DNA of 64,000 nt from an uncultured Thermoleophilia bacterium (GCA_963702475.1 CAVPCT010000002.1:224001-288000), one strand, 5' to 3'; counted from the first letter of the stretch, positions 11,643-27,613 are shown. Numbers and translations: made by a program. The notes: a model not told the origin generated them from the sequence alone.

Positions 11643-11643
<1 letters not shown>

Positions 11644-12560: not shown

Positions 12561-12583
12561 TGGCAGAGAGGAGATCGAGCCGT

Positions 12584-12855
12584 ATGGATGCTGAGGAGTT
12601 CGACAGGAAGTCCGATGACGGGCTCGAAGACGTCATGCAGTAGTGGACCTCTCCGGTGAGCGTCGACCCGATCGCGACACGAAGCGCGTGAGCGTCGATC
12701 TTCCCCCGTGGTTGGTCGATGCCCTCGATAACGAGGCTGCGCGCTTGGCGGTGACCCGGCAGTCTGTGATCGAAGTCCGGCTCTCGGAGAGGGTCGACCA
12801 GAACCGGCGCGCGCTGGAGGCCGAGGGCGCGCGCCGCAAGTCGCAGACTGGATAA
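12584..12855 (+). pseudogene. BrnA/CopG-type antitoxin, frameshifted at ~12641
   Basis: MDAEEFDRKSDDGLEDVMQ / VDLSGERRPDRDTKRVSVDLPPWLVDALDNEAARLAVTRQSVI; TAA stop lies within the attC inverse core GGATAAC. Confidence 0.7.
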
Positions 12856-12944
12856 CAGCGCTTCCTAGCTTCGTGGTACCTTCCTACGCAGAAGCCGGAA
12901 GCTGCAGCAGAGGTCTTCTCTCTACTGCACAAATGCAGTCGGGC
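12850..12944 (+). repeat. attC-like site
   Basis: GGATAAC...GTCGGGC; last ~57 nt nearly identical to 20698-20754. Confidence 0.65.
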
Positions 12945-13003
12945 ATCCGCTCGTCGACCCGTGGCGGAGTGCGGAGCGCGGGGTGGACGTTGCCCTCTGG
13001 CCG

Positions 13004-13031
13004 TTGCGGTTCCGCAGCTTCTGGTTATACT
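13004..13031 (+). promoter_or_regulatory. Sigma70-type promoter for a probably leaderless TA operon, with overlapping palindrome TATAC-N5-GTATG
   Basis: TTGCGG-16-TATACT; ATG at 13038 with no SD. Confidence 0.55.
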
Positions 13032-13037
13032 CACGGT

Positions 13038-13271
13038 ATGAAGACAGCGATCTCCATACCCGACGACCTGTTCGCCGACGCCGAGGAGCTGGCGCGGGAG
13101 CTGAAGAAGTCGCGCAGCCGCCTCTACGGTGACGCGGTGCGCGAGTACGTCGCCCGCCACTCCGCCGAAAGCGTCACCGAGGCCCTCGATCGCCTCTGCG
13201 ATGAGGTCGACTGCCGCAGCGATTTCGCCGGTGCCGCTGCGCACCGCACCCTGGAGCGCTCCGACTGGTGA
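13038..13271 (+). CDS. Ribbon-helix-helix antitoxin (MazE6/ChpI-like)
   Basis: MKTAISIPDDLFADAEELARELKKSRSRLY; overlaps toxin start (GTGA). Confidence 0.85.
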   Translation: MKTAISIPDDLFADAEELARELKKSRSRLYGDAVREYVARHSAESVTEALDRLCDEVDCRSDFAGAAAHRTLERSDW

Positions 13272-13609
13272 CCGCCCAGGGCGAGGTCTGGTGGGCCGAC
13301 CTGGCCGAGCCCTCCGGCTCCGAGCCCGGCTTCCGCCGCCCCGTCGTGGTCGTCCAGGGCGACGCCTTCAACCGCAGCCGTATCGGCACCGTCGTCTGCG
13401 TCGCGCTGACCAGCAACCTGCGCTGGGCCGACGCTCCCGGCAACGTCCTTCTCACCGCGCGCGCCACGGGCCTGCCCAAGGACTCGGTCGCCAACGTCTT
13501 GCAGCTCGTCACCCTCGACCGCGAGGCGCTGACCGAGCGCGTCGGCGCCCTGCCCGCGAAGAAGCTCGAGCTGGTGCTGCTCGGCATCGACATCGTCCTC
13601 GGGCGTTGA
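13268..13609 (+). CDS. mazF: PemK/MazF-family toxin
   Basis: QGEVWWADL..PSGSEPGFRRPVVVVQGDAFNRS, LTSNL, GLPKDSVAN. Confidence 0.92.
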   Translation: MTAQGEVWWADLAEPSGSEPGFRRPVVVVQGDAFNRSRIGTVVCVALTSNLRWADAPGNVLLTARATGLPKDSVANVLQLVTLDREALTERVGALPAKKLELVLLGIDIVLGR

Positions 13610-13616
13610 CGCGATT

Positions 13617-13703
13617 GCCCAACAAGCGGAGCAAGCTGGCTCGCCGAACCTCCGCGGCGCAGCGGAGCCGCGGCGCTCGCAGCTTCTCCGCGGCGCGTCA
13701 GCC
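13617..13703 (+). repeat. attC-like site
   Basis: GCCCAAC AAGCGGAGCAAGCTG...GCAGCTTCTCCGC...GTCAGCC. Confidence 0.8.
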
Positions 13704-13745
13704 CGAACCGATCCTGTTCACACACCCGTAAGGAGATCTTCCACA

Positions 13746-14492
13746 GTGGACATCCCGCGGATCTTCACCATCACTGAGAGTGCTCACCGCATCCACAACC
13801 CGATCACACCCGAGAAGCTCGCCACTCTCGGCGCGGCGCTGCGTCTGGAATCGGGGGCGCGAGTGCTCGACCTCGGCAGCGGTTCGGGGGAGATGCTGTG
13901 CACCTGGGCGCGCGATCACGGCGTCAGCGGCACCGGCATCGACATGAGCCGGTCGTTCACCGAGCAGGCGAGACGCCGTGCTGAAGAGCTCGGCGTCGCC
14001 GATCGAGTCAAGTTCATCCACGGCGATGCCGCCGGCTATGTCTCTGACGAGAAGGCCGGCGTGGCGGCCTGTCTCGGTGCCACCTGGATCGGCGGGGGAG
14101 TCGCCGGCACCATCGAGCTCCTGGCGCGCAGCCTGCGCCCCGGAGGGATCGTCCTCATCGGCGAGCCCTACTGGCGGCAGGTGCCGCCGACGGAAGACGT
14201 CGCCAAGGGGTGTCTTGCCGGCGCGATCTCCGACTTCCTCCTGCTTCCGGAGCTTCTCGCGTCGTTCGGCCACCTCGGCTACGACGTCGTCGAGATGGTC
14301 CTGGCCGACCAGGACGGCTGGGACAGATACGAGGCGGCCAAATGGCTCACCATGCGCCGCTGGCTTGAAGCCAATCCCGATGACGAGCTCGCGAAGGATG
14401 TTCGAGCCCAACTGACCGCGGAACCCGAGCGCTACGCCGCGTACACGCGTGACTACCTGGGCTGGGGTGTGTTCGCACTGATGCCGCGGTGA
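13746..14492 (+). CDS. Class I SAM-dependent methyltransferase (YjhP-like), cassette gene
   Basis: VLDLGSGSGE, GIDMS, FIHGDA, LRPGGIVLIGEPYW; AAGGAG RBS. Confidence 0.9.
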   Translation: MDIPRIFTITESAHRIHNPITPEKLATLGAALRLESGARVLDLGSGSGEMLCTWARDHGVSGTGIDMSRSFTEQARRRAEELGVADRVKFIHGDAAGYVSDEKAGVAACLGATWIGGGVAGTIELLARSLRPGGIVLIGEPYWRQVPPTEDVAKGCLAGAISDFLLLPELLASFGHLGYDVVEMVLADQDGWDRYEAAKWLTMRRWLEANPDDELAKDVRAQLTAEPERYAAYTRDYLGWGVFALMPR

Positions 14493-14572
14493 TGCGTTGG
14501 CGCATGAGGCGGATCGTCAACGCCGAAGGTCATTGGCGGTTGGTCTGGGCCCAGATTGGCTACACGCGGTCG

Positions 14573-14657
14573 GGCTGATGAAGGCATCAACCTGACGGCC
14601 AGAAGGTGGACTGACCCGAGGGCGCCTGCGCCGCAGGTCATGCCTACGACGTTAGGC
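14573..14657 (+). repeat. attC-like site
   Basis: GGCTGAT GAAGGCATCAACCTGACGGC...GCCGCAGGTCATGCCT...GTTAGGC. Confidence 0.8.
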
Positions 14658-14672
14658 CGACGAGACGCGGGG

Positions 14673-15182
14673 ATGGAGTCGATGGGTGACATTGATCGTG
14701 ACGTTCGCGAGCTTCGCGCAGCGCTCGCGATGGGCAGGATCCAGAACGCTTACGTCGCACTCGTCAAGTACATGTCTCGACTTCGCGCAAGGTACGCGGG
14801 CGAGCGAGGGGACCGCACAGTCTCCGGCCTCTATCAAGGCTACTTTGACATGACGTACTTCGCGCTCTTTCCGGATTGGTTCAGGGAGCGCGACTTGAAG
14901 GTGGCGGTGGTCTTCGACTACGCGAGCTTCTCTTTCCAGGCATGGTTGGCGGCCCGCAATCGCAGGGTGCAGAGGTCCTACTGGGAGCAACTGCGTGACG
15001 CTGGATACACCGAACACACGTTGGTCGAGCCGGGTGCCGGGATCGATGCCATCGTGATCTCGGTTCTTGCCGACGACTTCTCCCTTGCTGATGAGTCTGC
15101 TCTGACCAGGCGAATCGAGGCTGGTGTGGAGTCCTTCGAAGACGACATGCTTGCCGTGCTCAGTGAACTGAGCGGTGTGTGA
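14673..15182 (+). CDS. Conserved hypothetical (DUF7000-like), cassette gene
   Basis: GRIQNAY..L, GLYQGYFDMTYFALFP, LKVAVVF, WLAARNR; visibly more A/T-ending codons than host genes. Confidence 0.7.
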   Translation: MESMGDIDRDVRELRAALAMGRIQNAYVALVKYMSRLRARYAGERGDRTVSGLYQGYFDMTYFALFPDWFRERDLKVAVVFDYASFSFQAWLAARNRRVQRSYWEQLRDAGYTEHTLVEPGAGIDAIVISVLADDFSLADESALTRRIEAGVESFEDDMLAVLSELSGV

Positions 15183-15186
15183 CGCG

Positions 15187-15273
15187 GCCGAACAAGCAGG
15201 AAGCTGATGCGGCGCAGGCCTTCTTGACTCTGTGAGGCCTGCGCGCACAGCTCATCCGCATGGGACGTTGCGC
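15187..15273 (+). repeat. attC-like site
   Basis: GCCGAAC AAGCAGGAAGCTGATGCG...CGCACAGCTCATCCGC...GTTGCGC; inner hairpin GCGCAGGCCT/AGGCCTGCGC. Confidence 0.75.
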
Positions 15274-15399
15274 CGGGACTCGAGGGTCGCGGCGTGCGTG
15301 GACTCGTCTACGGCGCGTATCGCGTCTTCGCCTCCACGCTCGGGAGTTGCTGAGCTTCGAGCCCCGGCCGTGGCGGCCGGGTCTCGAAGGATGCCTCGG

Positions 15400-15800
15400 T
15401 CATCCCCAAGCTCCGAGGATCGCGCCCATGATCGTGAACGCGACCGCGTGGTAGCCGGCGTCGATGAACCACAGCGCCAATGGCCGGCGCTCGAAGAGGT
15501 ACGTGATCGCCATGCCGGCCGCCACCCAGGCGACGCCGGCCGCGGCGCCGGCGGCCGCGCCGAAGGCGACGCCCACATCGGCGCCGATGAAGAACGCAAG
15601 GGTCGTGGCTGCGACCACGGCGACGACCGCCGACAGGCCGAACACCACGGGGAGCTTGCGGGCGGCGAGGTCGGCGTCGCTGAGCGCCGCGGCGCACTGC
15701 CACGCTTTCGCGAAGGGCAGGGGTGAGTACAACATCCCACCCAGAAGGAACATCGACGCCGCCGCAGCGGCGATCGCGCCCCCGTCTCCACACCGCTCAT
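15400..15800 (-). pseudogene. DUF1761-family membrane protein, 5' end frameshifted
   Basis: FLLGGMLYSP..FAKAW, YLFERRPLALWFIDAGYH; upstream ATG 15800 out of frame. Confidence 0.6.
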
Positions 15801-15831
15801 CGCGCCTTCCGGGAAAGGCTCGCGTCCGAGG

Positions 15832-15898
15832 AAGTAAAAAACTCTTGACATGATGTCCGCATCGCTTTACAGTACGTCATGTCAAACATTCCTGACAT
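15832..15898 (+). promoter_or_regulatory. Sigma70 promoter overlapped by three ATGTCA-N8-TGACAT-type operators
   Basis: TTGACA 15845-15850, 17 nt, TACAGT 15868-15873; operators 15832-15851, 15853-15872, 15879-15898. Confidence 0.8.
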
Positions 15899-15947
15899 CA
15901 TGAGCAGCCCCCACAGTGGGGCGACTCGCAGCAAGGAGGCGATCCTG

Positions 15948-16400
15948 ATGCCGTTCGAAGAGAAGATCTCATGGGTCAACGCGGTGGTCATGGCCATCGT
16001 CCCGGTGGCCTATTTCGTGATCATGCTGGGCCGGCTGGGCGACACGCCGGCGGCCGACATCTCCTACCAGTGGCCGCTCCTCATCGCCATCGGGGCGTCG
16101 ATCGTCCTGACCATCGTCGGGTCGATCCTGGCCGGCATCGGCACCGGCATCTCGGCGGAACTGCGCGGCAGGTCCGCCTCCGCCGAGATCGATCGCAAGG
16201 ACGAGCGGGACAAGCAGATCAGCCGTCACGGCGACCTGATCGGCTTCTCCGTCTCCTCCTTCGGCATGGTCGGCGTGCTCGCCCTCACGATGCTCGAGTA
16301 CGAGTATTTCTGGATCGCCAGCGTCCTCTATCTCTCGTTCGTGGTCGGCACGCTGGTCGGATCGGTGGTCAAGATCGTCTCGTACCACCGGGGCTTCTGA
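15948..16400 (+). CDS. Four-TM membrane protein (DER-motif, DUF2178-like) paired with XRE regulator
   Basis: Hydrophobic helices flanking DRKDERDKQI; AAGGAGG RBS. Confidence 0.75.
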   Translation: MPFEEKISWVNAVVMAIVPVAYFVIMLGRLGDTPAADISYQWPLLIAIGASIVLTIVGSILAGIGTGISAELRGRSASAEIDRKDERDKQISRHGDLIGFSVSSFGMVGVLALTMLEYEYFWIASVLYLSFVVGTLVGSVVKIVSYHRGF

Positions 16401-16402
16401 CC

Positions 16403-16624
16403 ATGGGCAAGCCGACCAGAGTGACCAACCGCATCCGGGCGCTCCGCTTCGCCGCCGGCGAGATGACGCAGGCCGATCTCGCCGACAGGGTGGGCGTCAC
16501 GCGCCAGACCGTCATCGCCATCGAGCAGGGCCGGTACTCGCCGTCGCTCGAGATGGCCTTTCAGATCGCGCGGGTGTTCGACCTCCCGCTCGACGACGTG
16601 TTCCAGTATCCGAAGGAGAAGTGA
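16403..16624 (+). CDS. Small XRE/Cro-family HTH regulator
   Basis: NRIRALR...MTQADLADRVGVTRQTVIAIEQGRYSPSLEMAFQIARVF. Confidence 0.92.
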   Translation: MGKPTRVTNRIRALRFAAGEMTQADLADRVGVTRQTVIAIEQGRYSPSLEMAFQIARVFDLPLDDVFQYPKEK

Positions 16625-17376
16625 TGGACACCTCCACAATCCGCGCCGAGCCCACGGTGCTGCTCCTCGGCGGCACCGGGCGCACCGGCGGGCGCGTCCT
16701 GACGCAGCTTCTGGGCCGCGGCATCCGTTTGCGCGCCCTGGTCCGGTCGGCCGAGCGGCTCCCGGCGGGCGTCGCGGGCGACCCGCTGCTGACGATCGTC
16801 GAGGCGGACCTGCTCTCCCTGAGCGCCGAACAGGTCAAGGAGCAGGTCGACGGCTGCGACGTCGTGATCTCCTGTCTCGGCCACACCATCAGCGCGAAGG
16901 GGGTCTTCGGGCGGCCGCGCGACCTCGTCACGCGGTCGGTGGAGCGGGTGTACCGGGCGACTTGGGAGCTGCGGCCTGCGCGGCCCGTGAAGCTCATCCT
17001 CATGAGCAGCGTCTCCGTGAACCGCCCGGGAGGCCTGGACACGCGGCGCGGGTGGTTCCAGCGCGCCGCCCTCTGGCTGCTGCGCGGCCTCGTGCCTCCG
17101 GCGCGGGACAACCAGCGCGCCGCCGACTTCCTCCACGACGTCGTCGAGGCGGCCGATCCCTCTGCGGAGTGGGTGGTCGTCCGGCCCGACACGCTGAAGG
17201 ACGGCGACGTGACCGAGTACGCGCTGCACGAGGGTCTCGTGGACGGCATGTTCCGCCCCGGCGAGACCAACAGGGCCAACGTCGCCCATTTCATGTGCGA
17301 GCTGGCGAGCGACGTCGGGGCGTGGGCGGCCTGGCAGGGCAAGCTCCCCGTGATCGTGAACGCATCGCCTGAGTGA
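16624..17376 (+). CDS. Atypical SDR / NAD(P)H-binding protein
   Basis: LLLGGTGRTGG, ALVRS, WVVVRP, RANVAHFM. Confidence 0.85.
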   Translation: MDTSTIRAEPTVLLLGGTGRTGGRVLTQLLGRGIRLRALVRSAERLPAGVAGDPLLTIVEADLLSLSAEQVKEQVDGCDVVISCLGHTISAKGVFGRPRDLVTRSVERVYRATWELRPARPVKLILMSSVSVNRPGGLDTRRGWFQRAALWLLRGLVPPARDNQRAADFLHDVVEAADPSAEWVVVRPDTLKDGDVTEYALHEGLVDGMFRPGETNRANVAHFMCELASDVGAWAAWQGKLPVIVNASPE

Positions 17377-17563
17377 CCCCGCCGCGGCGGTGACGGCCGC
17401 CGCGCGCAGCCCCATGGGCATGGCCGACGCCTGACGTCGCCGTGCTCGCCTCGAGGTCGTGTGTGGTGCACGACCGACCCATCCAACGACGAGCCTGGGC
17501 TTGCCATGCGCTGCTTCGGCCCGTCACGGCCGCCGGCGCGAGACCAGCCGGCAGCGGGAGAAG

Positions 17564-19894
17564 ATGACAGTGACGCAGAGCGAGAACAAGCAGAACAGGC
17601 GGGGCGCCGGAGCGGGCTCCAGCCTCACGGAACGCCTGGCGCGCACCAGCGCCCTCCACCCGTGGCGCACCATCGGCATCTGGACGGTGCTCATCGTCCT
17701 CGCCGTGGTCGCGGTCGGTACGCTGCTCGGCAGCGGCCTGACCTCGGACATCAAGTTCCGTGCCGACAAGCCGGACAGCCTGGTCGGCCAGGAGCTCCTC
17801 GAGCAGCGTCTCACCGGGCCGCGGCAGATCACCGACTTCGTCATCGTGCGCTCGGCCTCGGCCACAGTCGACGACCCCGCATTCAAAGCCTACGTCGACG
17901 ACCTCACCCGCCGGATCACCGGCCTGGGCCCGGCGGTCGTCAGGAGCGTGTCCACCTACTACCAGACCGGTGACCCCACCGTCGTCTCGAGAGACGAGCA
18001 CGCGACCCTTATCCCCGTGGTCATGGCCGGCACCATCGACGACGCCGTGAAGAACGCGGGCAAGCTGCACACGCTCGTCGTGGCGGCCCAGGGCCGGGGC
18101 TTCACCGTCGCGCTGACCGGCGACGCGAGCATCATGGAGATGTTCATGACGCTCGCCGAGAAGGACCTGGCGCGCGGCGAGATCCTCGGCGTCCCCGCCG
18201 CGCTGATCGTGCTCCTGATCGTCTTCGGCGCGGTGCTCGCGGCGTGCATGCCGCTGCTGATGAGCATAATCAGCATCGTCCTCGCGCTGGCCCTGACCGC
18301 GCTCATCGGCCAGGTCTACCCGATGACCGCCTTCGCGCTGAACATCCTCACCATGATGGGCCTGGCGGTGGGCATCGACTACACACTCTTCGTGATCAGC
18401 CGCTACCGCGAGGAGCGCGCCCGAGGCCTCGCGAAGATCGACGCCATCGCCGCGACCGGCGCCACCGCCAATCGCGCCATCTTCTTCAGCGGCATGACCG
18501 TGGTGCTCGCCATGGCCGGCATGGTCATCATCCCGCTCGACGTCATGATCAGCATGGGCATCGGCGTGATGCTGGTGGTGTTCACCACGCTGGTGACGGC
18601 GCTCATCGCCCTGCCGGCGCTGCTGAGCCTGCTCGGGGACCGCGTCGACGCCCTCCGCGTGCCCTTCATCCGCCGCCGCGCCACCCGCCGTCTGAGCGGC
18701 GGCTCCGGCATCTGGGAGCGCCTGGCGCACAGCATCATGCGCCGCCCGGTCGTCTGGCTCACTATCGCCGTCGTGGCGCTGCTCGTGGCGGCCGCCCCCG
18801 TGATGATGATGAAGAGCGGCGACAGCACCGCGAGCGCAGCCCATCTTCCCGACAGTGAGTACGCGAAGCAGGGCTGGGACATCCTGGACCGGGACTTCAC
18901 CCTGGGCAAGGCCAATCCGCTGCTGATCGTGATCGACGGGCAGGCGGCCTTTCCGCAGGTGAAGCGGGCCGTGGAGGACCTGCAGGCGGCCATGAAGAGC
19001 GATGGCGACTTCGGCCCGGCCCGGGTCACAACGAACGAGGCCGGGGACCTCACCCTCATCACCACGACGCTCGCCGGCGATCCTGCGGGCGAGGCCACCC
19101 AGTCCGTCGTGAAGCGCCTGCGCGAGGACATCGTGCCGCGGGCCGCGGGCGGACTGGCCGCGAAGGTGTACGTCGCCGGCACCACCGCGGGCGTCGTCGA
19201 CTACCTCGGCTTCTTCGGCGCCTGGATGCCGGTGGCGATGGCGGTGATCCTGAGCCTGAGCTTCGTGCTCCTGCTGGTCGCCTTCCGCTCCGTCGTCATC
19301 CCGGCGCAGGCGATCCTCATGAACCTGCTGTCGGTCGGAGCCGCCTACGGCCTCATGGTGCTGGTCTTCCAGAAGGGTGTCGGCGCCGGCCTCCTTGGCC
19401 TCACCCAGGTCGACACCATCGAGGCCTGGGTGCCGCTCTTCCTCTTCAGCCTGCTGTTCGGCCTCTCCATGGACTACCAGGTGTTCCTGCTCAGCCGCAT
19501 CAAGGAGCGCTACGACGAGACCGGCGACACCCGCGAGGCGGTCGCCCACGGCCTCGGCCGCACCGCCGGCATCATCACCGGCGCGGCCGCCATCATGGTG
19601 TGCGTGTTCGGCGGCATGGCCACCGGCGAGCTGGTGATGTTCCAGCAGATGGGCTTCGGCCTCGCCGTGGCGGTCTTCCTCGACGCCACGGTGGTGCGCA
19701 CCATCATCGTGCCCGCCGCCATGGAGCTGCTCGGAGACTGGAACTGGTACCTGCCGCGCCGGCTGCAGTGGATCCCCGATGTCAGTGTGGAGGGGCGCAG
19801 CCACGAGCCGGCGGCGCCGAAGGAGCCCCGTCACCCCCGGCACGAGCCCGGCATCACCGTCCCGCGGCCTTCTCTCGGAGGCGCGGAGCACTAG
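17564..19894 (+). CDS. MMPL-family (RND) transporter
   Basis: GLAVGIDYTLFVISRYREE, LFGLSMDYQVFLLSRIKE, DATVVRTIIVPA. Confidence 0.93.
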   Translation: MTVTQSENKQNRRGAGAGSSLTERLARTSALHPWRTIGIWTVLIVLAVVAVGTLLGSGLTSDIKFRADKPDSLVGQELLEQRLTGPRQITDFVIVRSASATVDDPAFKAYVDDLTRRITGLGPAVVRSVSTYYQTGDPTVVSRDEHATLIPVVMAGTIDDAVKNAGKLHTLVVAAQGRGFTVALTGDASIMEMFMTLAEKDLARGEILGVPAALIVLLIVFGAVLAACMPLLMSIISIVLALALTALIGQVYPMTAFALNILTMMGLAVGIDYTLFVISRYREERARGLAKIDAIAATGATANRAIFFSGMTVVLAMAGMVIIPLDVMISMGIGVMLVVFTTLVTALIALPALLSLLGDRVDALRVPFIRRRATRRLSGGSGIWERLAHSIMRRPVVWLTIAVVALLVAAAPVMMMKSGDSTASAAHLPDSEYAKQGWDILDRDFTLGKANPLLIVIDGQAAFPQVKRAVEDLQAAMKSDGDFGPARVTTNEAGDLTLITTTLAGDPAGEATQSVVKRLREDIVPRAAGGLAAKVYVAGTTAGVVDYLGFFGAWMPVAMAVILSLSFVLLLVAFRSVVIPAQAILMNLLSVGAAYGLMVLVFQKGVGAGLLGLTQVDTIEAWVPLFLFSLLFGLSMDYQVFLLSRIKERYDETGDTREAVAHGLGRTAGIITGAAAIMVCVFGGMATGELVMFQQMGFGLAVAVFLDATVVRTIIVPAAMELLGDWNWYLPRRLQWIPDVSVEGRSHEPAAPKEPRHPRHEPGITVPRPSLGGAEH

Positions 19895-19908
19895 CTCGGA
19901 CGAGGGCA

Positions 19909-19944
19909 GAAGGGGCGGGGCGCCCGCGGGCGCCCCGCCCCTTC
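19909..19944. terminator. Perfect GC-rich hairpin between convergent mmpL-like and osmC-like genes
   Basis: GAAGGGGCGGGGCGCC-CGCG-GGCGCCCCGCCCCTTC. Confidence 0.8.
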
Positions 19945-19991
19945 CGTCGTTCTCTGAGGCGGCCACCCGGCCGGCGTGACCGCGGCGAGGC

Positions 19992-20436
19992 TCAGGCCAG
20001 CGTCGCCTCCACGCTGAGCTCCACGTTGCCCTTGAGTGCGCCGCTGATGGGGCAGCCGTCCCTGGCGTCCTCGGCGGCTTGATTGAACGCCGCCTGGTCG
20101 ATGCCCGGTACCCGGCCCTTGACCGTGATCCGCGATGAGCCGGTCTTCCAGCCGCCCTCGATCTCCTTGAACGTCACCGTGACGCTGGTCTCGAGCTTCT
20201 CGGGCGGGGTGCCGGCCTCACCGAGGATGTGCGAGAGCGCCATGCTGTAGCAGCTCGCGTGCGCGTCGGCCACGAGCTCCTGGGGGCTGGTCTTGCCGTT
20301 CGAGCGCTCGGTGCGCGATGCCCAGGTCACGGGCAGCGGGCCGGCGGCGCCGCTGGTCACCAGCGAGACTTCTCCGGAACCCTGACCCAGTGAACCCTGC
20401 CAGACTGCGTCGGCGACGGCGTGGTGCGTCGGCCAT
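19992..20436 (-). CDS. osmC: OsmC-family peroxiredoxin; one extra base just after the start codon
   Basis: AVWQGSLGQGSG, TSPQELVADAHASCYSMAL, GCPISGAL; AAGGAGG RBS before ATG 20436, which is 1 nt out of frame. Confidence 0.8.
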
Positions 20437-20680
20437 GACGGAACCTCCTTCAGGGTGGATGCTGGCGGCGGACGCCGCGCGGCGGCGCGGCGCCCACCTT
20501 CGCCACTGACGTCCCCAGCAGGTGCGGAACTCGAACCGGCGCGTCATGCGAGCCGCACTCCGACGACAGGTGACAGCCTAAGAACCGCAGAGTACGGTGA
20601 TGCATGACGCACTCGACAGGGGCGGCCGGCTGGGCCGTCGGGCCGGCATTCTCCCGTCTGCGTAAGTCCCTTCGTCGAGC

Positions 20681-20754
20681 GGGGAGCACTGTCTTATGCA
20701 GAAGTCGACAGCTGCAGCAGAGGTCTCCTCTCTACTGCAGAAATGCAGTCAGCC
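20681..20754 (+). repeat. attC-like site (same subtype as 12850-12944)
   Basis: TTATGCAGAAG...CTACTGCAGAAATGCA GTCAGCC. Confidence 0.6.
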
Positions 20755-20766
20755 GGAGGCCGCTCG

Positions 20767-21306
20767 ATGAGCACCGAGTGTGTCGTCCGGTTGGCCGACC
20801 CCGAGCACGTCGCCGCACTGCCCGCCATCGAGCGCGCGGCGGCCACCAGGTTCGGCGATTCGCTGCCTCAATCCGTGCTTTCGCATGTCACTTCGGTGGA
20901 CACCCTCGCGGCAGCACAACGTTCGGGTGTACTCTGGGTGGCTCTCGAATCAGCCTGCGACCCGATTGGATTCGCCGTTGCCAGCGTCTGCGGACGGCGC
21001 GTGCATCTCGACGAACTCGATGTGCTTCCTGAGCATGGTCGCAAGGGTGTGGGATCGGCGCTTGTCGAGGCAGTCGAGAACTGGGCGCTGCACAGCGACT
21101 ACATCGAAATCACCCTCACCACCTTCCGCGACGTCCCATGGAATGCGCCGTTCTATGCTCATATCGGTTTCGTGGTGATACCGGAGGGCGAACTCGATGC
21201 GGATCTCCTTCGAAGACTCTCAGATGAGTCTGCCATGGGTCTGGAACGTGTCAGACGGGTGGCGATGCGCAAGTCGCTTAGCCGTCTGACAGGCGCTTCA
21301 ACCTGA
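20767..21306 (+). CDS. GNAT acetyltransferase, cassette gene
   Basis: ELDVLPEHGRKGVGSALV, LTTFRDVPWNAPFY; GGAGG RBS. Confidence 0.9.
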   Translation: MSTECVVRLADPEHVAALPAIERAAATRFGDSLPQSVLSHVTSVDTLAAAQRSGVLWVALESACDPIGFAVASVCGRRVHLDELDVLPEHGRKGVGSALVEAVENWALHSDYIEITLTTFRDVPWNAPFYAHIGFVVIPEGELDADLLRRLSDESAMGLERVRRVAMRKSLSRLTGAST

Positions 21307-21367
21307 CGCGACAGCTCCTCGGCTATCCTGAAAGCGCTCGGCGCGCAGGTTTGCCGCTCTTGAGGCG
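21284..21367 (+). repeat. attC-like site, degenerate core
   Basis: GTCTGAC AGGCGCTTCAACCTGACGCG...CGCGCAGGTTTGCCGC..TTGAGGC. Confidence 0.65.
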
Positions 21368-21481
21368 GAGCTGTCGATAGCCGAGATCGCGTCTATCGAA
21401 GAAGTCATGCCTCCTGACGTTGCCGCTGGGACGCGCTACTCTGAAGCCTCGATGCGGGGACTGGATCTGTGATCGTGCGCC

Positions 21482-21541
21482 GCCGAACAAAGGGTTGCAG
21501 CCGACGTTGCTCCGCAACGCGGCTGACTCCTAACGCTACCG
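21482..21541 (+). repeat. Short (~60 bp) 59-base-element-type attC
   Basis: GCCGAAC AAAGGGTTGCAGCCGACGTTGC TCC GCAACGCGGCTGACTCCTAAC GCTACCG. Confidence 0.75.
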
Positions 21542-21616
21542 GTACAGCAGGGACGTGGGGCCAGTGTCCACCACTCGGGTGTTGCGTCCGTCCGCATCGC
21601 GGGGGAGACTGAAGCC

Positions 21617-21847
21617 ATGCGCAACACCGACCTCGATATCTCCAAGCTCTCAGTCGCCGAGCGCATCCAGCTCGCGGAGGACCTCTGGGACAGCGTCGCC
21701 GCCGAGACCGGTGACCTGCCGCTCACCGAGGCGCAGGCCGCCGAGCTCGACCGCCGCCTCGCCGAGCTCGAGCGCGACCCCGAGGCCGGCGAGAGCTGGC
21801 CGGTCGTGCGCGCGCGCATCGAGCAGCGCCTCGACAGGGCCGGCTGA
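21617..21847 (+). CDS. Putative addiction-module antitoxin
   Basis: LSVAERIQLAEDLWDSV...ELDRRL...GESWPVVRARI. Confidence 0.88.
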   Translation: MRNTDLDISKLSVAERIQLAEDLWDSVAAETGDLPLTEAQAAELDRRLAELERDPEAGESWPVVRARIEQRLDRAG

Positions 21848-21850
21848 GGC

Positions 21851-22146
21851 GTGCGCCTCGTCGTCCGCGAGGCGGCCGAGGCGGACATCGCCGAAGCCGC
21901 CCGTTGGTACGAGCAGCGCTCACCTGGCCTCGGATCGGAGTTCCTGCGCGCCGTCGACGTCACCCTCGCCGAGACCACGCGCATGCCCGAGCGTTACCCG
22001 GTCGTCCGCGGCAGAGCTCGCCGTGCTCTGCTCCGCCGTTTCCCCTAAGCGGTCTACTTTGTCGCCACCCCGGACCTCATCAGCGTCTTCGCTCGCCTGC
22101 ACGCGCGACGCGACCCGAGGCATTGGCGGGAGCGCAGCGAAGCTGA
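21851..22146 (+). pseudogene. RelE/ParE-family toxin with premature stop (22046-22048) and downstream frameshift
   Basis: AEADIAEAARWYEQRSPGLGSEFL...RRALLRRFP*AVYFV...HARRDPRHW. Confidence 0.8.
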
Positions 22147-22180
22147 CCGCTAATCCGAACGTGCGTCGGGCGGGGTAGAG

Positions 22181-22576
22181 GTGGTCACGTCACTGCGACC
22201 CGTCGTGGAGGGCGACCAGGCGAGCATCCAGCGCTGGGCAGGCCTCGCCGCCGGCCACATGTCGCGCACGCATCGTCTCGATGACGCTGCCGATCGCCAC
22301 GCTCCCGCTGAGGGGCTCTGCTGGTACATCCTCGACGCTGACGGCCGCGACGTCGGCACCGTCTGGGTCGAACTGCCCCCCGGCTCAGGCGAAGCGGTCC
22401 TCGGCATCTTCCTCTGCGATGCCTCGCATCTCGGTCGCGGCATCGGCGCCGCCGCCGTCGAGCGCGCCATCGCCTGCTACCGCCGGGTCGGCTTCACGGT
22501 CACCGGCAGCGGCACCAGGTCGCTGCCCTCCGGCGAGACCGTCCCCTACTACAGCATGGTCCTCCCGCCGTGCTGA
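22181..22576 (+). CDS. GNAT acetyltransferase, probably with internal deletion
   Basis: LGIFL.DASHLGRGIG directly joined to RAIACYRRVGF. Confidence 0.6.
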   Translation: MVTSLRPVVEGDQASIQRWAGLAAGHMSRTHRLDDAADRHAPAEGLCWYILDADGRDVGTVWVELPPGSGEAVLGIFLCDASHLGRGIGAAAVERAIACYRRVGFTVTGSGTRSLPSGETVPYYSMVLPPC

Positions 22577-22797
22577 CCCCCATCTCGCCGACGTTCCCCG
22601 ACCTGCCTCACAAGCGCGAGGTCGAGCACGCGCTCACGCAGGTCGAGACGTTTCCCGAGGCGGCGGAGCCGCTCCGCGACCGGGTGAGCCGGCGCCACTT
22701 GCACACGTTCCCCTGCGCGCTGCGCACCGATGAGGTCCGCGTCCTCGCGGTGGCGTATCAGAGGCGCCGGCCGTTCTACTGGGAGGATCGCCGGTGA
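22570..22797 (+). pseudogene. RelE/ParE toxin C-terminal remnant
   Basis: RRHLHTFPC...VRVLAVAYQRRRPFYWEDR. Confidence 0.65.
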
Positions 22798-22801
22798 GTG
22801 C

Positions 22802-22891
22802 GGCTGACAAGCGGATCAAGCCGGCTCGCCGCAGCGCCGGCGGCCTCACGGGAGGCCGGCGCGCTCGCAGCTTATGCGCGGTGCGCTAGCC
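22802..22891 (+). repeat. attC-like site
   Basis: GGCTGAC AAGCGGATCAAGCCGGCTCGC...GCGCTCGCAGCTTATGCGCGGTGC GCTAGCC. Confidence 0.8.
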
Positions 22892-22896
22892 AGACG

Positions 22897-23340
22897 ATGG
22901 CGGTGCGCTTGCAGACCCGGGCGGCAACCCATGACGACACACCGTTTCTGGTGCAGCTTGCGTGCGAGGCGTACCGCGACGTGGTCACCCTCCAGTTCGG
23001 CAGCTGGAACGAGCGCGAGCAGGCCACTCGCTTCGCGGCCAAGGTCGCGCGGCTGCCGTTCGAGGTCGGTGTGCTCGCGGACCGGCCGATCGCTACGGTC
23101 TCGTCGTCGGTCCACGCCGATCGCGTCGTCCTGAACGAACTGCTCGTACTGCCGGAGTTCCAGAACCGCGGGTTCGGCAGCGAACTGCTCGGGCGCGAGA
23201 TCCAGCGCGCTCTGCAGCTGGGCCTCCCACTGCGGCTGCACACGCTCCGGCGAAACCGGGCGTTGCGCCTCTTCGAGCGTCATGGTCTCATCGTCACGGC
23301 ACAGGGAGAGGTCTTCATCGACATGGAACGTGCTGGCTGA
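22897..23340 (+). CDS. GNAT acetyltransferase, cassette gene
   Basis: VLPEFQNRGFGSELL, NRALRLFERHG; starts 6 nt after attC core, stop inside the next inverse core. Confidence 0.85.
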   Translation: MAVRLQTRAATHDDTPFLVQLACEAYRDVVTLQFGSWNEREQATRFAAKVARLPFEVGVLADRPIATVSSSVHADRVVLNELLVLPEFQNRGFGSELLGREIQRALQLGLPLRLHTLRRNRALRLFERHGLIVTAQGEVFIDMERAG

Positions 23341-23424
23341 CATGCGGAGAGAGCTGGCTCGCCGCAGCGCCGACGCTGTCATCAGAAGTCGGCGCGCTCG
23401 CAGCTTGTCCGCGGTGCGTTTGAT
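23335..23424 (+). repeat. attC-like site
   Basis: GGCTGAC ATGCGGAGAGAGCTGGCTCGC...GCGCTCGCAGCTTGTCCGCGGTGC GTTTGAT. Confidence 0.8.
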
Positions 23425-23470
23425 CTGGCGACGCTGACGAATCCCCAGACGCCTGGCCCGGAGGTAGCTG

Positions 23471-24067
23471 GTGCACCTTGTCCTTGATAACCAGCGAGAG
23501 GCAGCGGCCGAGACGCTCGCGGAGGCGTTCAGAAATGATCCGCTGCTCCAGGTTCTCGCGCCCGACCCACGACGGCGGGTGGCAGTCGGTCGTTGGTTCT
23601 TTCGGGTCAGCATCGATTACGGGATGCGATGGGGCCGCGTCTGGGGCGCTGACGACGCCGCGGCGGTCTCCATCTGGCTGCCGCCGGGCAGTCGCTGGAG
23701 CGCCCTGCGCTCGTTGCGCGTCGGGATGGCCGCCTTCCCGTTCCGGGTGGGGCCAGGACCGATGCTGGACGTCATACGAGTCGCCCCTGCTCTCGAACGA
23801 CTCCACCGTTCGGTTCGTGGGCCGCACTGGTATCTCATGGCGATCGGTACGAGACCGTCGAGGCAGGGCGAAGGTTTGGGCAGCGCGCTCGTCGCGGCTG
23901 GTACGTCGCAAGCGGACCTCGCAGGGCTGCCCTGCTACCTTGAGACGTCTACGCAGAGCGCTGTCGACTTCTATGTCAAGCGGGGGTTCGAGGTCGTTGG
24001 CCAGGAGGATCTCAACGGGCACATCCTGTTCGGAATGGTGCGCCCTACGGCATCGTTGCTCATCTGA
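23471..24067 (+). CDS. GNAT acetyltransferase, cassette gene
   Basis: LAEAFRNDP, PHWYLMAIGTRPSRQGEGLGSAL, CYLETS, FYVKRGF; GGAGG RBS. Confidence 0.9.
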   Translation: MHLVLDNQREAAAETLAEAFRNDPLLQVLAPDPRRRVAVGRWFFRVSIDYGMRWGRVWGADDAAAVSIWLPPGSRWSALRSLRVGMAAFPFRVGPGPMLDVIRVAPALERLHRSVRGPHWYLMAIGTRPSRQGEGLGSALVAAGTSQADLAGLPCYLETSTQSAVDFYVKRGFEVVGQEDLNGHILFGMVRPTASLLI

Positions 24068-24145
24068 CCGGCGCCTCAAGCTGACGTCCAGAAGGTCGTA
24101 GCGACGTGAAGGCGCACGGGGCAGCTCATCGGTCACGTGTTGGTC
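24062..24145 (+). repeat. attC-like site
   Basis: ATCTGAC CGGCGCCTCAAGCTGAC...GCAGCTCATCGG...GTTGGTC. Confidence 0.65.
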
Positions 24146-24214
24146 ACAGCCTTCTCCACTGGTTGCGAGGGTACGTTAGTGGTACCGTTGTCAGTAGCAC
24201 AGGAGGTAGCGTCA

Positions 24215-24490
24215 ATGGTATCAGTACCTGACATCGTCCCCATCACCGACCTCCGCCAGGACGCCTCGGGCGTGATCAAGCGCGCGTCCGACACGCAGCA
24301 GCCGGTGTTCATCACGCAGCGCGGCCGCGCCACCGCCGTCGTCGTCAGCGCCAGGGCCTACGAGCGCACGCAGCACGAGCTCGAGGTCCTGCGCCTGCTC
24401 GCACGCGGCGAAGCCGAGATCGAGGCCGGCTCAGGCCACACGCTCGCCGACGTGCTGGCCGAGGCCGACGGGCTGCTCGGCAGGCCGTGA
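24215..24490 (+). CDS. Phd/YefM-family antitoxin
   Basis: IVPITDLRQDAS, PVFITQRGRATAVVVS; AGGAGG RBS. Confidence 0.9.
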   Translation: MVSVPDIVPITDLRQDASGVIKRASDTQQPVFITQRGRATAVVVSARAYERTQHELEVLRLLARGEAEIEAGSGHTLADVLAEADGLLGRP

Positions 24491-24846
24491 GCCGCAGGGT
24501 CCTCTTCACCCCCGCCGCCCGTGAGCAGTTCCTTGCGGCGCTCGCCTACACCGCTGCCGCAGACCCGGCGGCAGCGCGGAGTCTGCGCGATCGCGCCGCG
24601 GCCTCGCTCTCCCGCCTCGCCGACTACCCGGGGTCGGGGCGCGCGCTGCCCGAGTTCCCCGACCTGTCGTTCCGTGCGGTCATCGTGCCACCGTACCGCT
24701 TCTTCTACCGCGTCATGGACGACGCGGTCTGGGTGGTCGCGGCGTGGCACTCGGCCAGCTCCCTGGCGAGCCGACGGACGTTGGGCGTGACTGACAAGCG
24801 GAGAAGCTGGCTCGCAGGCAGCTCTACGGTACACTTCGTAGCGTGA
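24487..24846 (+). CDS. RelE/ParE-family toxin, C-terminus apparently frameshifted into the attC
   Basis: LADYPGSGRALPEFP, PPYRFFYRV, VVAAWH; alternate frame QLPGEPTDVGRD* ends in the inverse core at 24792-24794. Confidence 0.75.
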   Translation: MSRRVLFTPAAREQFLAALAYTAAADPAAARSLRDRAAASLSRLADYPGSGRALPEFPDLSFRAVIVPPYRFFYRVMDDAVWVVAAWHSASSLASRRTLGVTDKRRSWLAGSSTVHFVA

Positions 24847-24877
24847 GCGCTGGCAGCTTGTCCGCGAGGCGTTAGGC
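24789..24877 (+). repeat. attC-like site
   Basis: GACTGAC AAGCGGAGAAGCTGGCTCGC...GCGCTGGCAGCTTGTCCGCGAGGC GTTAGGC. Confidence 0.8.
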
Positions 24878-24908
24878 GAACGAGCAGCGCTCAACAGGGG
24901 GCGAGTGC

Positions 24909-25379
24909 ATGCTGCCGCAAGCGGGACAGGGTCCATGGTGGGCGGCGTTGACGGTGTGGGGTGTCGTCAACTCCGTCAACGTGCTTCAGGCCCTCGGGTT
25001 CCTCTCCAGGGTTCGTTCCGGGGCCATGACGCTCAATCACCGTCTGGGCTACGTGATGATCGCACTCGCCGCGCCGACTCTGATCGCGCTGGTCGGTTAC
25101 GTGAAGTCCCGGGCGGGAGTCCTGACCTATCTCGGTCCGCTCGCGTACCTCGGTTTCGTGGCGTTGATGCTGGCGGTCGACTACATCGCTCCGGTGGAGT
25201 TCCGCTCACCGCCTCGCTACGTCATCCTTGTGCCCTATCTCGCGCTCTTCTTCGGCGCGATCCTCTTGATGGGCCTCCCGATGTACGAGCTGAACCGCTC
25301 GTACTGGCTGGTGACCGTCGTGACCAGCGCGTTGCTCCTTGCCTCCATGGTCGCGGCCATGCGTAAGGGAGTGGGCTGA
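24909..25379 (+). CDS. Hypothetical multi-pass membrane protein, cassette gene
   Basis: About 5 hydrophobic segments; fills the space between two attC-like sites. Confidence 0.65.
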   Translation: MLPQAGQGPWWAALTVWGVVNSVNVLQALGFLSRVRSGAMTLNHRLGYVMIALAAPTLIALVGYVKSRAGVLTYLGPLAYLGFVALMLAVDYIAPVEFRSPPRYVILVPYLALFFGAILLMGLPMYELNRSYWLVTVVTSALLLASMVAAMRKGVG

Positions 25380-25401
25380 CGAGACGCGCGGGTGGATCGT
25401 C

Positions 25402-25491
25402 GCCTGACAAGCGCATCGAGTTGGCTCGCAGTAAGCTCACCGCTGGACTGCATCGCGTGAGCGCTCGCAGCGTGTCCGCGGCGCGTTCGAC
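25402..25491 (+). repeat. attC-like site
   Basis: GCCTGAC AAGCGCATCGAGTTGGCTCGC...GCGCTCGCAGCGTGTCCGCGGCGC GTTCGAC. Confidence 0.8.
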
Positions 25492-25542
25492 GCACGCCGT
25501 TTCTTTGCGGGCGGAGATGCAGCGAGAGGCGGGGAGGCCTGG

Positions 25543-25881
25543 ATGGCATCGGAATTGAGCTTCGTCGAGTTCGTCTGCGACCAGCTTCGTGACGCCGGCG
25601 AGCCGTCGTTTCGCAAGATGTTCGGCGAGTATGTGATCCACCTTGACGGCAAAGTCGTCGCGCTCGTGTGCGACGACCGCCTCTTCGTCAAGCAGACCGC
25701 CGGCGGGCGAGCCTTCCTCGGCGATCCGGTCGAAGCCCCTCCGTATCCCGGGGCCAAGCCGTACTTCCTGATCGGTGACGGACTCGATGATCATGCGTGG
25801 TTGAGCGCGCTGGTTCGCGTGACCACAGAGGAGCTTCCGCCGCCCAAGCCCAAGCGCGCGAGGCGTCCGCGCTCGGAGTAG
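25543..25881 (+). CDS. TfoX N-terminal domain protein, cassette gene
   Basis: RKMFGEY, ALVCDDRLFVKQT, PPYPGAKPYF; GGAGG RBS. Confidence 0.9.
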   Translation: MASELSFVEFVCDQLRDAGEPSFRKMFGEYVIHLDGKVVALVCDDRLFVKQTAGGRAFLGDPVEAPPYPGAKPYFLIGDGLDDHAWLSALVRVTTEELPPPKPKRARRPRSE

Positions 25882-25946
25882 CCGGCCTCGGACTGTCGCC
25901 ACGTCACGGGCAATCGCATCGAGCATCCGTCGCCCGACATGCCGGC

Positions 25947-25975
25947 GTCGAACAAGGGCGTCAACCTGACAACCA
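25947..25975 (+). repeat. attC-like left arm only
   Basis: GTCGAAC AAGGGCGTCAACCTGAC; complementary to GTTCGACGC at 25485. Confidence 0.65.
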
Positions 25976-26195
25976 CGCCGTAGACTGCGGAAGAGAAGTG
26001 CGTCGAACCCCGCCGCCCCGGGCGGCGCGCGCCCAACCAGGTGGTCGCACTTCCCTGCCCGATGCTCTGATGCGGCAGCGCTCCGCGCATCGGCGCGGAT
26101 CCCCGCGAACCTCCGTCTGCACGCGAGCGTCCCACGGGCAAGGGCACAGCCGGCGCAGCCGTTTCCGGCGTGCTCACTCCAGAAGGGGGACCGTG

Positions 26196-26936
26196 ATGGC
26201 ACTCAGGAACAGGTACGCTACCGCCGGACTCGTCGCGGCTCTCGCCCTGGCGCTCGGCGCGCTTGCGGGATGCGGCACTACCGCCACCACTGCCACGTCC
26301 ACCCAGGCAGGCGCCGCCGCCGGCACCGTGACCGCCTCCGGCATGGGCACCGCGCAGGCCGCGCCGGACACGGCCGAGATGTCCTTCGGCGTGACCACGA
26401 TGGCGTCCGACGCAAAGTCGGCACTCGACGACGCCTCCGCGGTCGCCGAGCAGATCGCCTCCGCGGTCAAGAAGCAGGGCGTCGCCGCCGAGGACATCCA
26501 GACGCGCGACGTCAGCGTCTACCCGCAGACGCTAGACCAGGACGGCAAGCAGGTCATCAGCGGCTACCAGGCCTCGCTCAGCGTGCAGGTCAAGGTGCGC
26601 GACATCGCCAAGCTCGGCGAGGTCATCTCGGCGGCGAACGCCGCCGGCGCCAACAGCATCAGTGGACCCGCGTTCACCATCGCCGATCCGGCGCCCGTCC
26701 GCGCGAAGGCGATCGACGAGGCCGTGGCCGACGCCCGCAAGAGCGCCGAGGCGATGGCGAAGGCGGCCGGCAAGAGCGTCGGAGAGGTGCTGAGCATGAG
26801 CTCAGGCGACGTGGGCCTGGTCTCCGTCCCGATGTACGGAGGGGGCGGCGACATGGCCGAGGCGGCCAAAGTGCCCATCGAGCCGGGCCAGCTCGACGTC
26901 ACGGCGAACGTGGTCGTGGTCTTCGAGCTCAAGTAG
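26196..26936 (+). CDS. SIMPL (DUF541) domain lipoprotein
   Basis: Lipobox LAGC; ASGMGTAQAAPDTA, DIQT, GANSISGP, PIEPGQLDVTANV. Confidence 0.88.
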   Translation: MALRNRYATAGLVAALALALGALAGCGTTATTATSTQAGAAAGTVTASGMGTAQAAPDTAEMSFGVTTMASDAKSALDDASAVAEQIASAVKKQGVAAEDIQTRDVSVYPQTLDQDGKQVISGYQASLSVQVKVRDIAKLGEVISAANAAGANSISGPAFTIADPAPVRAKAIDEAVADARKSAEAMAKAAGKSVGEVLSMSSGDVGLVSVPMYGGGGDMAEAAKVPIEPGQLDVTANVVVVFELK

Positions 26937-27574: not shown

Positions 27575-27613
27575 CGCGCGGGTCGGGTGGACTTCGCGGT
27601 CGTGCCGCGCGTC

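Follow-up and report, generated by a model that had tools for sequence, protein, structure and literature searches.

Why do the two ends of successive gene units in an actinobacterial genome pair with each other, at a locus where no integrase gene is found? The question is raised by a stretch of 64,000 nucleotides (hereafter, the window) from an uncultured Thermoleophilia bacterium (GCA_963702475.1, CAVPCT010000002.1:224001-288000). Between positions 12938 and 25953 short genes are separated by repeats, and the original prediction for this DNA proposed that the core ahead of each gene is complementary to the inverse core behind it, as the fingerprint of circular cassettes integrated by an integron integrase (IntI). 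We find that the interval is very probably a chromosomal integron cassette array from which the integrase gene has been lost, that is, a set of clustered attC sites without an integron integrase (CALIN, as defined by Cury et al.) in which the attI sites have been preserved. This reading is supported by the architecture of the attC sites, the complementarity across genes, the G|T boundaries compared among genomes, the homology of attI and the disappearance of intI from its native place.

Each cassette would once have been a DNA circle with one attC, and the integron integrase would have joined the folded bottom strand of this attC to attI or a second attC by a crossover immediately behind the G of GTT. 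Because the crossover lies there, the bases following each G belong to the next cassette in a linear array, and their partner would be that cassette's inverse core, one gene further on. Hall, Stokes and co-workers reportedly arrived at this in the 1990s by analyzing the crossover in the 59-base elements of class 1 cassettes: the bases after the G are the next cassette's, and the ends pair in the circle. The crossover at G|TT of GTTRRRY is treated as established in the accessible part of PMC3518468. The mechanism is thus already known and nothing is added to it here. What is new is an integrase-less, partly decayed array that has two attI sites and comes from a Thermoleophilia-type genome, in a phylum reported to be nearly free of integrons. 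Complementarity across genes is the classical proof of the circular cassette form, and it yields exact boundaries without annotation.

Complementarity across genes

All 16 core and inverse-core motifs of the original prediction are present in the window, each at its stated position. Read directly, the pairs give 7/8 matches for 12938/13616, 8/9 for both 14651/15185 and 20748/21282, 7/9 for both 22885/23333 and 24139/24787, and 9/9 for 25485/25945; with one mismatch and one indel each, 13697/14567 gives 12 matches and 24871/25397 gives 11.

The intergenic repeats align as one family, consisting of an R'' inverse core, a 5' arm AAGCGGATCAAGCTGGC, a variable centre, a 3' arm GCAGCTTATCCGC and an R' core starting with G. 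In the predicted consensus fold the L''/L' stem has 13 pairs, with compensatory changes at 7 of the 13 and unpaired bases on the 5' arm. A covariance model, to which all attC bit scores given here refer, was built from eight sites of the window, which score 59.9-87 bits. Scanning the window with it added a ninth site at 21282-21368 (26.2 bits, E=1.3e-4) and no further match above 18.7 bits on the rest of the plus strand of the 64 kb. The inventory of the array is therefore nine model-supported attC sites and three degenerate ones. Their length is 87-96 nt, they are GC-rich, and many of their triplets are GTC/GAC. At least two are co-oriented and less than 4 kb apart, as in a CALIN, with the R''-L''-variable-L'-R' architecture, an imperfect hairpin and extra bases on the R''/L'' arm. 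Three weaker candidates that resemble remnants by eye, at 21480-21545 (12.1 bits), at 27612-27685 (11 bits) and in the last attC's 3' half (25945-26048), are not significant with the model. When 150 of 8,024 first-look candidates from the whole genome were scored, one match of note lay outside the locus (24.8 bits, contig C3). In relatives, the same model gave 118 matches over 14 loci, arranged as co-oriented arrays.

Pairing was scored by setting the 13 nt that start at each R' G against the reverse-complemented 13 nt up to the end of each R'', over positions 4-13 only, which excludes the conserved GTT. Eleven R' and eleven R'' boxes of the window gave ten upstream-neighbour junctions, namely the eight predicted ones plus 21359>21488 and 23418>24068. 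Upstream neighbours matched at 5.9 of the 10 positions on average (n=10), compared to 3.78 within the same attC (n=9) and 3.87 for other pairs (n=102, sd 1.4). When R' boxes were assigned at random, 3 of 100,000 trials attained the observed sum with the ten junctions, and none of 100,000 did so either with the predicted eight or with one gap allowed. No other R' box surpassed the true neighbour at 6/10 junctions without gaps and at 8/10 with gaps. As predicted, pairing is generally better across a gene than inside one attC: this is so in seven of the eight comparable cassettes, the exception being 14651>15193 (5 vs 6).

Three of the box positions (21359, 21488 and 25953) had been set by eye or from weak model matches, and the test was therefore repeated in relatives with coordinates given by the model only. 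From 116 of the 118 matches (one was cut by a locus end and one is on this genome's own contig C3), 105 consecutive pairs in 11 loci were obtained. Mean matches were 6.34 for neighbours, 4.16 within the same attC, 4.13 for other pairs and 4.27 for a control in reversed direction, and 0 of 20,000 shuffles attained the observed sum (666 vs 438 +/- 12.6). The permutation tests in the window and the 105 pairs in relatives thus bear out the claim that the two ends of each cassette are complementary, and the outcome that would have undone it, shuffled partners matching equally well, did not occur: true neighbours match far better.

Circular forms and cassette boundaries

In silico, the opening 12 nt of each cassette were attached to that cassette's attC, taken up to its G, and the bottom strand was folded using parameters for DNA. 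Seven of eight circularized cassettes formed an R''/R' stem of 6-11 bp, compared to one of eight with the array tail in place of the 12 nt. Mean free energy was -24.45 kcal/mol for the circular form and -21.36 kcal/mol for the array form (Wilcoxon p=0.016, eight cassettes).

The boundaries can also be seen by comparison among genomes. Blast of the region against the loci of relatives returned blocks of 82-91% identity that are whole cassettes. Five other genomes have the MazEF cassette starting at 12938 (they contribute six loci, one genome supplying two), and seven have the Phd-ParE cassette starting at 24139, twice directly behind attI. In every one of these cases the sequence ahead of the G is unrelated, being a different attC site or, in G021, attI itself. 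The MazEF, methyltransferase, GNAT, antitoxin-ParE and Phd-ParE cassettes recur elsewhere in other orders, as independently mobile units do. Their ends in relatives, GTTGGGCAT / TTGCCCAAC for MazEF and GTTAGTCAC / GTGACTAAC for Phd-ParE, are perfectly or almost perfectly complementary; those of the methyltransferase cassette are GTTAGCCCGAACCG / CGGTCGGGCTAAC, and its orthologue in G020 pairs perfectly. The methyltransferase and Phd-ParE ends are perfectly complementary in relatives and carry point changes in this genome, and in three shared cassettes the relatives' ends are better matched or canonical where this genome has such changes. Part of the imperfect pairing observed here is thus due to later point mutation.

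The methyltransferase cassette bears on the crossover point. It has an unusual C at position 3 of both ends, and position 1 differs (G vs A). Because the C is shared and position 1 is not, these comparisons fit a crossover that lies behind the G but ahead of the third base, with no finer resolution. The G|T starts of shared cassettes agree with the claim that IntI crosses over between G and TT and that the bases after the G belong to the downstream cassette, but they place the crossover only within those limits. The predicted boundaries, at least eight in number, are real, but the cores at 12938 and 20748 sit in attI sites and not in attC. Four independent lines, namely the permutation tests, the circularized folds, the starts of shared cassettes and the true IntI that relatives carry beside homologous attI and attC, support reading the complementarity as a scar probably left by IntI when circular cassettes were crossed over at G|TT.

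A second kind of exchange is suggested by the attC sites of the MazEF (13615-13705) and Phd-ParE (24787-24879) cassettes. Compared to orthologous cassettes (88-91% identical), they have the same inverse core and 5' arm but different central and 3' parts, and one GC-rich hairpin module is found repeatedly in many attC sites. These patterns suggest that sequences may be exchanged inside attC sites separately from the G|TT crossover.

A missing integrase and two attI sites

IntI was identified by the TIGR02249 cut-off of 265 bits. None was found in this 4.3-Mb genome, where the best score was 80.9 bits, and an IntI adjoining the array, the mark of a complete integron, is therefore missing. Searching with a relative's IntI by tblastn gave no remnant in the window (best E=0.13) and matches in the genome only on contig C5, at about 37% identity, which we take to be Xer-like. 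IntI scores above the cut-off in 13 of 24 congeners and is present in pieces in five more; five of five further congeners were positive.

Relatives show where the gene should be. In 13 distinct ones pntB is immediately upstream of intI, which lies on the cassette strand, upstream of attI. The order is intI, a small toxin-antitoxin pair in several genomes, a conserved site of about 110 nt ending ...ACTGCAGAAATGCA|GTTRGGC, and then the attC arrays. In this genome, homology to pntB stops at 11643-11667, and that to the platform resumes at 12567 (or 12708, depending on the comparison). The segment in between (11667-12566), which in relatives carries intI (and brnT), is about 0.9 kb of other DNA with an HD-domain open reading frame (ORF) at 11783-12643 (Pfam). 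It is followed on the plus strand by a ribbon-helix-helix (RHH) antitoxin gene (12585-12855), presumably brnA-like, with a stop and frame change at 12641-12643 and no Pfam match for 12643-12855. This gene is also present between intI and attI in relatives (tblastn, 75% in locus L079 and 81% in L097), and locus L108 shows an upstream start.

Two copies of a 59-nt repeat, 12882-12940 and 20692-20750, are 88% identical and align with the intI-proximal site of relatives. The cores at 12938 and 20748 are thus both attI, and the idea that the repeats were an odd type of attC was dropped on this alignment. In full, attI-1 (12830-12938) and attI-2 (20640-20748), both on the plus strand with the crossover G at their last position, align over about 110 nt with the site that ten relatives have 150-280 nt downstream of intI. 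Directly behind the attI G comes the first cassette in each case. The triplet is GTC in both attI here and GTT in relatives, and the region of attI-1 (12708-12945) is 89% identical to L079.

The junction between osmC and attI-2 is shared at 91% identity with genome G058 (contig C25), where it heads 13 attC sites. G058 has an intact intI with its own attI on another contig, and its two 59-nt attI cores are identical (L094 4017-4074; L108 about 5390-5448). Only one of those 13 cassettes is shared with the sub-array behind attI-2, which implies that cassettes turned over after the osmC-attI-2 junction arose. An orphan attI core heading its own array is unusual; one copy here follows the platform antitoxin gene and the other osmC. 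A single fixed integron locus in the genus was considered and rejected, since G064 and G058 have intI behind other flanks. The upstream flanks of intI in L101 (G064:C4) and L108 (G058:C8) correspond to C6:239273-245508 and C5:522942-526585 of the genome studied here, so the platform has been moved or rearranged within the genus.

Organization of the locus

The array consists of two sub-arrays, with all cassettes on the plus strand. Sub-array 1 is made of attI-1, three cassettes and the first 60 nt or so of a fourth. Cassette 1 (12939-13697) encodes an RHH antitoxin (13038-13271) and a PemK/MazF toxin (13268-13609) and ends in attC a1 (13615-13705, 85 bits). Cassette 2 (13698-14651) carries an S-adenosylmethionine-dependent methyltransferase gene (13746-14492) and attC a2 (14571-14659, 71.1 bits), and cassette 3 (14652-15267) a DUF7000 protein gene (within 14556-15182) and attC a3 (15185-15275, 59.9 bits); the genes of all three were assigned by Pfam, as were those below unless otherwise stated. 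The fourth cassette is limited to its start (15268-15330): positions 15270-15329 resemble the cassette starts of six relatives (78-88%), with nothing beyond, and sub-array 1 is truncated here.

A non-cassette block of 5.3 kb (15331-20640) follows, with ordinary genes and no attC match. Its genes encode DUF1761 (15400-15753, minus strand), a membrane ORF (15879-16400), an XRE helix-turn-helix protein (16403-16624), an NAD(P)H-binding protein (16621-17376), an MMPL transporter (17459-19894) and OsmC (19992-20360, minus strand). The block is contiguous in G052, G014 and G058, with a breakpoint at 15778, and the loci of G052 and G014 are without attC. At 15860-15920, where the DUF1761 gene diverges from the membrane/XRE genes, a near-perfect palindrome, TTGACATGATGTCCGCATCGCTTTACAGTACGTCATGTCAA..., lies between them and looks like a putative operator for the XRE regulator.

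Sub-array 2 consists of attI-2 and nine cassette units, and reaches to about 26047. Cassette 5 (20749-21359) has a GNAT acetyltransferase gene (within 20743-21306) and attC a5 (21282-21368), in which the G of R' is a C; its orthologue in G064 has attC sites on both sides. The remnant at 21360-21535, whose end is fixed by relatives as the start of the next cassette, has a 46-codon ORF fragment with no Pfam match and the degenerate attC a6 (about 21480-21545), whose 12.1 bits are not significant. Cassette 7 (21536-22153) encodes an Unstab_antitox antitoxin (21617-21847) together with a ParE toxin that is interrupted at 22048, and its attC is deleted after the inverse core. It is homologous to G001/G020 over 21534/21537 to 21957/22135 and to six other genomes over 21533/21537 to 22125/22153; by eye, alignment is lost after about 22153. 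The stretch at 22154-22885 is scrambled, with a GNAT fragment (22181-22576), a 75-codon ORF (22570-22797) and attC a8 (22800-22893, 85.4 bits).

The remaining units are more regular. Cassettes 9 (22886-23418) and 10 (23419-24139) each have a GNAT gene (22897-23340 and 23471-24067), followed by attC a9 (23333-23426, 87 bits) and a10 (24060-24147, 60.4 bits). Cassette 11 (24140-24871) encodes a Phd/YefM antitoxin (24215-24490) and a ParE toxin (24487-24846), with attC a11 at 24787-24879 (83.6 bits). Cassette 12 (24872-25485) has a 156-aa ORF (24909-25379) with no Pfam match, a putative membrane protein by eye, and attC a12 (25400-25493, 76.6 bits). Cassette 13 (25486-26047) encodes a TfoX_N-domain protein (25543-25881); the last attC has its inverse core at 25945-25953, a degenerate 3' arm and no significant model match. 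Homology of the right flank to that of G064 begins at 26047, and the SIMPL/DUF541 gene in it (26196-26936, plus strand) is also behind the last attC in G064.

Most units thus have one or two short ORFs in one direction with an attC behind them, the broken exceptions being 15268-15330, 21360-21535 and 22154-22885. The content is typical of cassettes: four toxin-antitoxin pairs, five GNAT ORFs (one a fragment), a methyltransferase and DUFs. Two identifications made by eye were dropped, as Pfam gave nothing at E<=1: the 46-codon fragment (21332-21469) as the C-terminus of an aldo/keto reductase, and the 75-codon ORF (22570-22794) as that of ParE/RelE.

Cassette-like DNA was also observed outside the array. 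Contig C3:876380-877912 (L100 3380-4913) has a second, decayed cassette remnant with an attC whose centre is deleted, a copy of the methyltransferase cassette and an attC-like 3' arm (24.8 bits). This copy is 96% identical to window positions 13692-14522, has the same start, G|TCAGCCCG, and adjoins an MMPL paralogue of 77% identity. Past the SIMPL gene, at 27100-27745, the window has what by eye is a frameshifted gene of glyoxalase/VOC type (no Pfam match for 27294-27776). Behind it come an inverse core and 5' arm resembling those of attC (27612-27685; at 11 bits, not significant) and then a GFA-family gene (27758-28174). This region and the GFA-family gene may be old cassettes outside the present array.

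Decay of the array

Several parts of the locus are broken. Interruptions break both the antitoxin gene ahead of attI-1 and the ParE gene at 21851-22140, the attC behind 22153 is deleted past its inverse core, R' of a5 has lost its G, and fragments fill 21360-21535 and 22154-22885. Of nine R'' boxes here, two keep the conserved AAC, whereas relatives keep it in 90 of 116 (Fisher p=0.0013). Both model-supported boxes of the CAAC/GAAC type are unchanged, and two hand-placed inverse cores, 21488 and 25953, are also GAAC.

The pattern has a parallel in one relative: G020, whose intI is frameshifted, has 8 TGAC and 2 TAAC, compared to 4 and 41 in the other ten loci. A rule that a broken intI leads to TGAC inverse cores is true for this genome and for G020, and is ruled out as stated by G001. 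We prefer to explain the inverse-core changes by relaxed selection together with GC-biased mutation in a genome of 70% GC, an explanation that leaves the site specificity and the compensated pairs unaccounted for. More generally, the box mutations, frameshifts and truncations would reflect relaxed selection after the loss of intI. The array would have been built by a Thermoleophilia IntI, and its cassettes are probably immobile now.

Weighing the alternatives

A number of observations weigh against the interpretation of the locus as a decayed integron array. The evidence is sequence inference on a metagenome-assembled genome (MAG), 93.8% complete and with 6.5% contamination. Two of the ten junctions pair at chance level, the added 21359>21488 and 23418>24068 being poor (2/10 and 4/10), and cassette 23419-24139, which has the weakest end pairing of the array, is the one of eight that forms no R stem when circularized. 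As to decay, the GTT of R' is kept in 6/9 sites here and in 99/116 in relatives, a depletion that is not significant (p=0.16). All R'' boxes expected to read TAAC (21290, 22808, 23341, 24068, 24795, 25408 and 14579) are changed, to TGAC (6) or TGAT (1), and so uniform a change weakens the case for decay. G001, where intI is also split, has 0 TGAC and 11 TAAC. Moreover, two cassettes (methyltransferase and GNAT) have a matching T>C at their 5' end and are thus compensated. Finally, the link between the two sub-arrays is found on one contig, and so are the left junctions at about 15330 and 15778.

This last point bears on the alternative that survives best, although we consider it unlikely: that the two attI-headed sub-arrays were placed around ordinary genes by chimeric assembly of the MAG. 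The contamination is compatible with it, the junctions at about 15330 and 15778 were seen in no other genome, and metagenome contigs carrying 15339-15778 run on with unlike sequence at 15778. On the other hand, the osmC-attI-2 junction recurs in G058, and the breakpoints are not in repeated sequence. Public sequencing runs contained at most 0.20 of the sampled words per run, and the contigs of four of them were short pieces of 90-99% identity from related organisms. These pieces do not decide on the junctions at about 15330, 15778 and 20640; some join cassette ends in other orders and, at such likeness, were not counted. A chimera would leave the finding on cassette ends unaffected.

Still less probable, in our view, is that the array remains active, with an IntI encoded by an unbinned contig, a plasmid or another strain moving cassettes in trans. 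The incompleteness of the MAG leaves room for an unassembled integrase, and G058 offers a model: its array is headed by the same orphan attI beside osmC, with intact intI on another contig, and 13 of 13 attC have canonical triplets. The compensated changes at both ends of two cassettes here would also be in keeping with continued activity. Yet neither hidden Markov model search nor tblastn found IntI in the 4.3 Mb, intI is gone from between pntB and attI, many cassettes are broken, attC sites are lost or degenerate, and AAC remains in just two of nine inverse cores.

It is very hard to maintain that the repeats are other intergenic palindromes, such as repetitive extragenic palindromic (REP)-type elements, terminators or Xer-type module borders. 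The repeats do form imperfect, GC-rich hairpins behind genes, and the genome's only tyrosine recombinases are Xer-like; but the homologous repeats of relatives form one-directional arrays starting from attI beside bona fide IntI, those of this genome are confined to the locus and one decayed remnant on C3, and G|TT-bounded units recur in different orders among genomes. The proposal that the matches across genes stem from a consensus shared by all boxes, with no cassette-specific information, draws on the semi-conservation of box positions 4-7, owing to which unrelated pairs still match at about 3.9/10, and is refuted, practically beyond doubt, by the shuffles in the window and in relatives and by the background level of the own-attC and reversed pairs.

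Host range and comparison with known integrons

In surveys of complete genomes, as far as the accessible parts of these sources go, Actinobacteria are without complete integrons (PMC4889954; bioRxiv 10.1101/2022.02.28.482270), and the available portion of a 2026 permafrost study refers to their "virtual absence" in Actinomycetota (PMC13323075). No description of the present arrays was found in the literature on integrons in Thermoleophilia or actinobacterial MAGs, leaving aside supplements, which may list such MAGs. In a draw of genomes from the class, 52 of 401 had IntI above the cut-off. At E<=1e-60 it was present in 43/79 genomes of this family (26/48 of this genus), 12/61 of a second family and 1/24 of a third, and in 0 of 236 genomes of the remaining eight families of the class. 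In half of the genus, then, an intact IntI accompanies arrays built of this attC family, despite the lack reported for the phylum.

We hold it possible, with somewhat less than even confidence, that one or two uncultured Thermoleophilia families carry chromosomal integrons regularly and that this genome is a natural integrase knockout which, set beside orthologous cassettes of integrase-bearing relatives, reveals the features of attC and attI that IntI-imposed selection keeps. This view takes in the site-specific shift from TAAC to TGAC in the inverse cores (compensated in two cassettes) and the duplicated 59-nt attI core at the head of a second array remote from any integrase, perhaps used in trans in G058. 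A lineage whose intI, at one conserved locus, is intact in some members and frameshifted or deleted in others, and whose members share orthologous cassettes, is a good natural series for the rate of attC/attI decay and for the question of whether orphan attI work in trans.

Unlike class 1 integrons, the array has neither resistance genes nor a mobile platform, and its attC sites are of 87-96 nt, GC-rich and often with GTC/GAC triplets. The relatives are closer to the "inverted integrase" layout, described for Treponema and Chlorobium in the parts of PMC3607928 and PMC13323075 available to us. As in that group (Treponema, Chlorobium, Kuenenia), intI, attI and all attC are on one strand, with attI downstream of intI, and the relatives' IntI proteins share 61-69% identity with IntI from MAGs of Chlorobiaceae, Coriobacteriia, Desulfuromonadales and Planctomycetia. 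The differences are the host, here a Thermoleophilia-type actinobacterium of 70% GC, the toxin-antitoxin pair between intI and attI in several relatives, and the loss of intI in the genome studied here.

The text at hand of Cury et al. (2016, PMC4889954) defines CALIN as at least two attC less than 4 kb apart with no IntI nearby, and gives loss of intI as one proposed origin. Most CALIN have no recognizable history, whereas the ancestral pntB-intI-attI platform of the present one is known from relatives. Its closest parallel is the remnant in Treponema phagedenis, where, according to the available part of Wu, Doak and Ye (2013, PMC3607928), intI is lost, attC sites and cassettes persist at a locus syntenic with the intact integrons of congeners, and the array was read as static. 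Loss of intI with attC and cassettes kept at a syntenic locus is common to both. In the Thermoleophilia array, unlike in T. phagedenis, attI survives in two copies, the replacement of intI can be mapped, and the decay of the boxes can be measured against orthologous cassettes.

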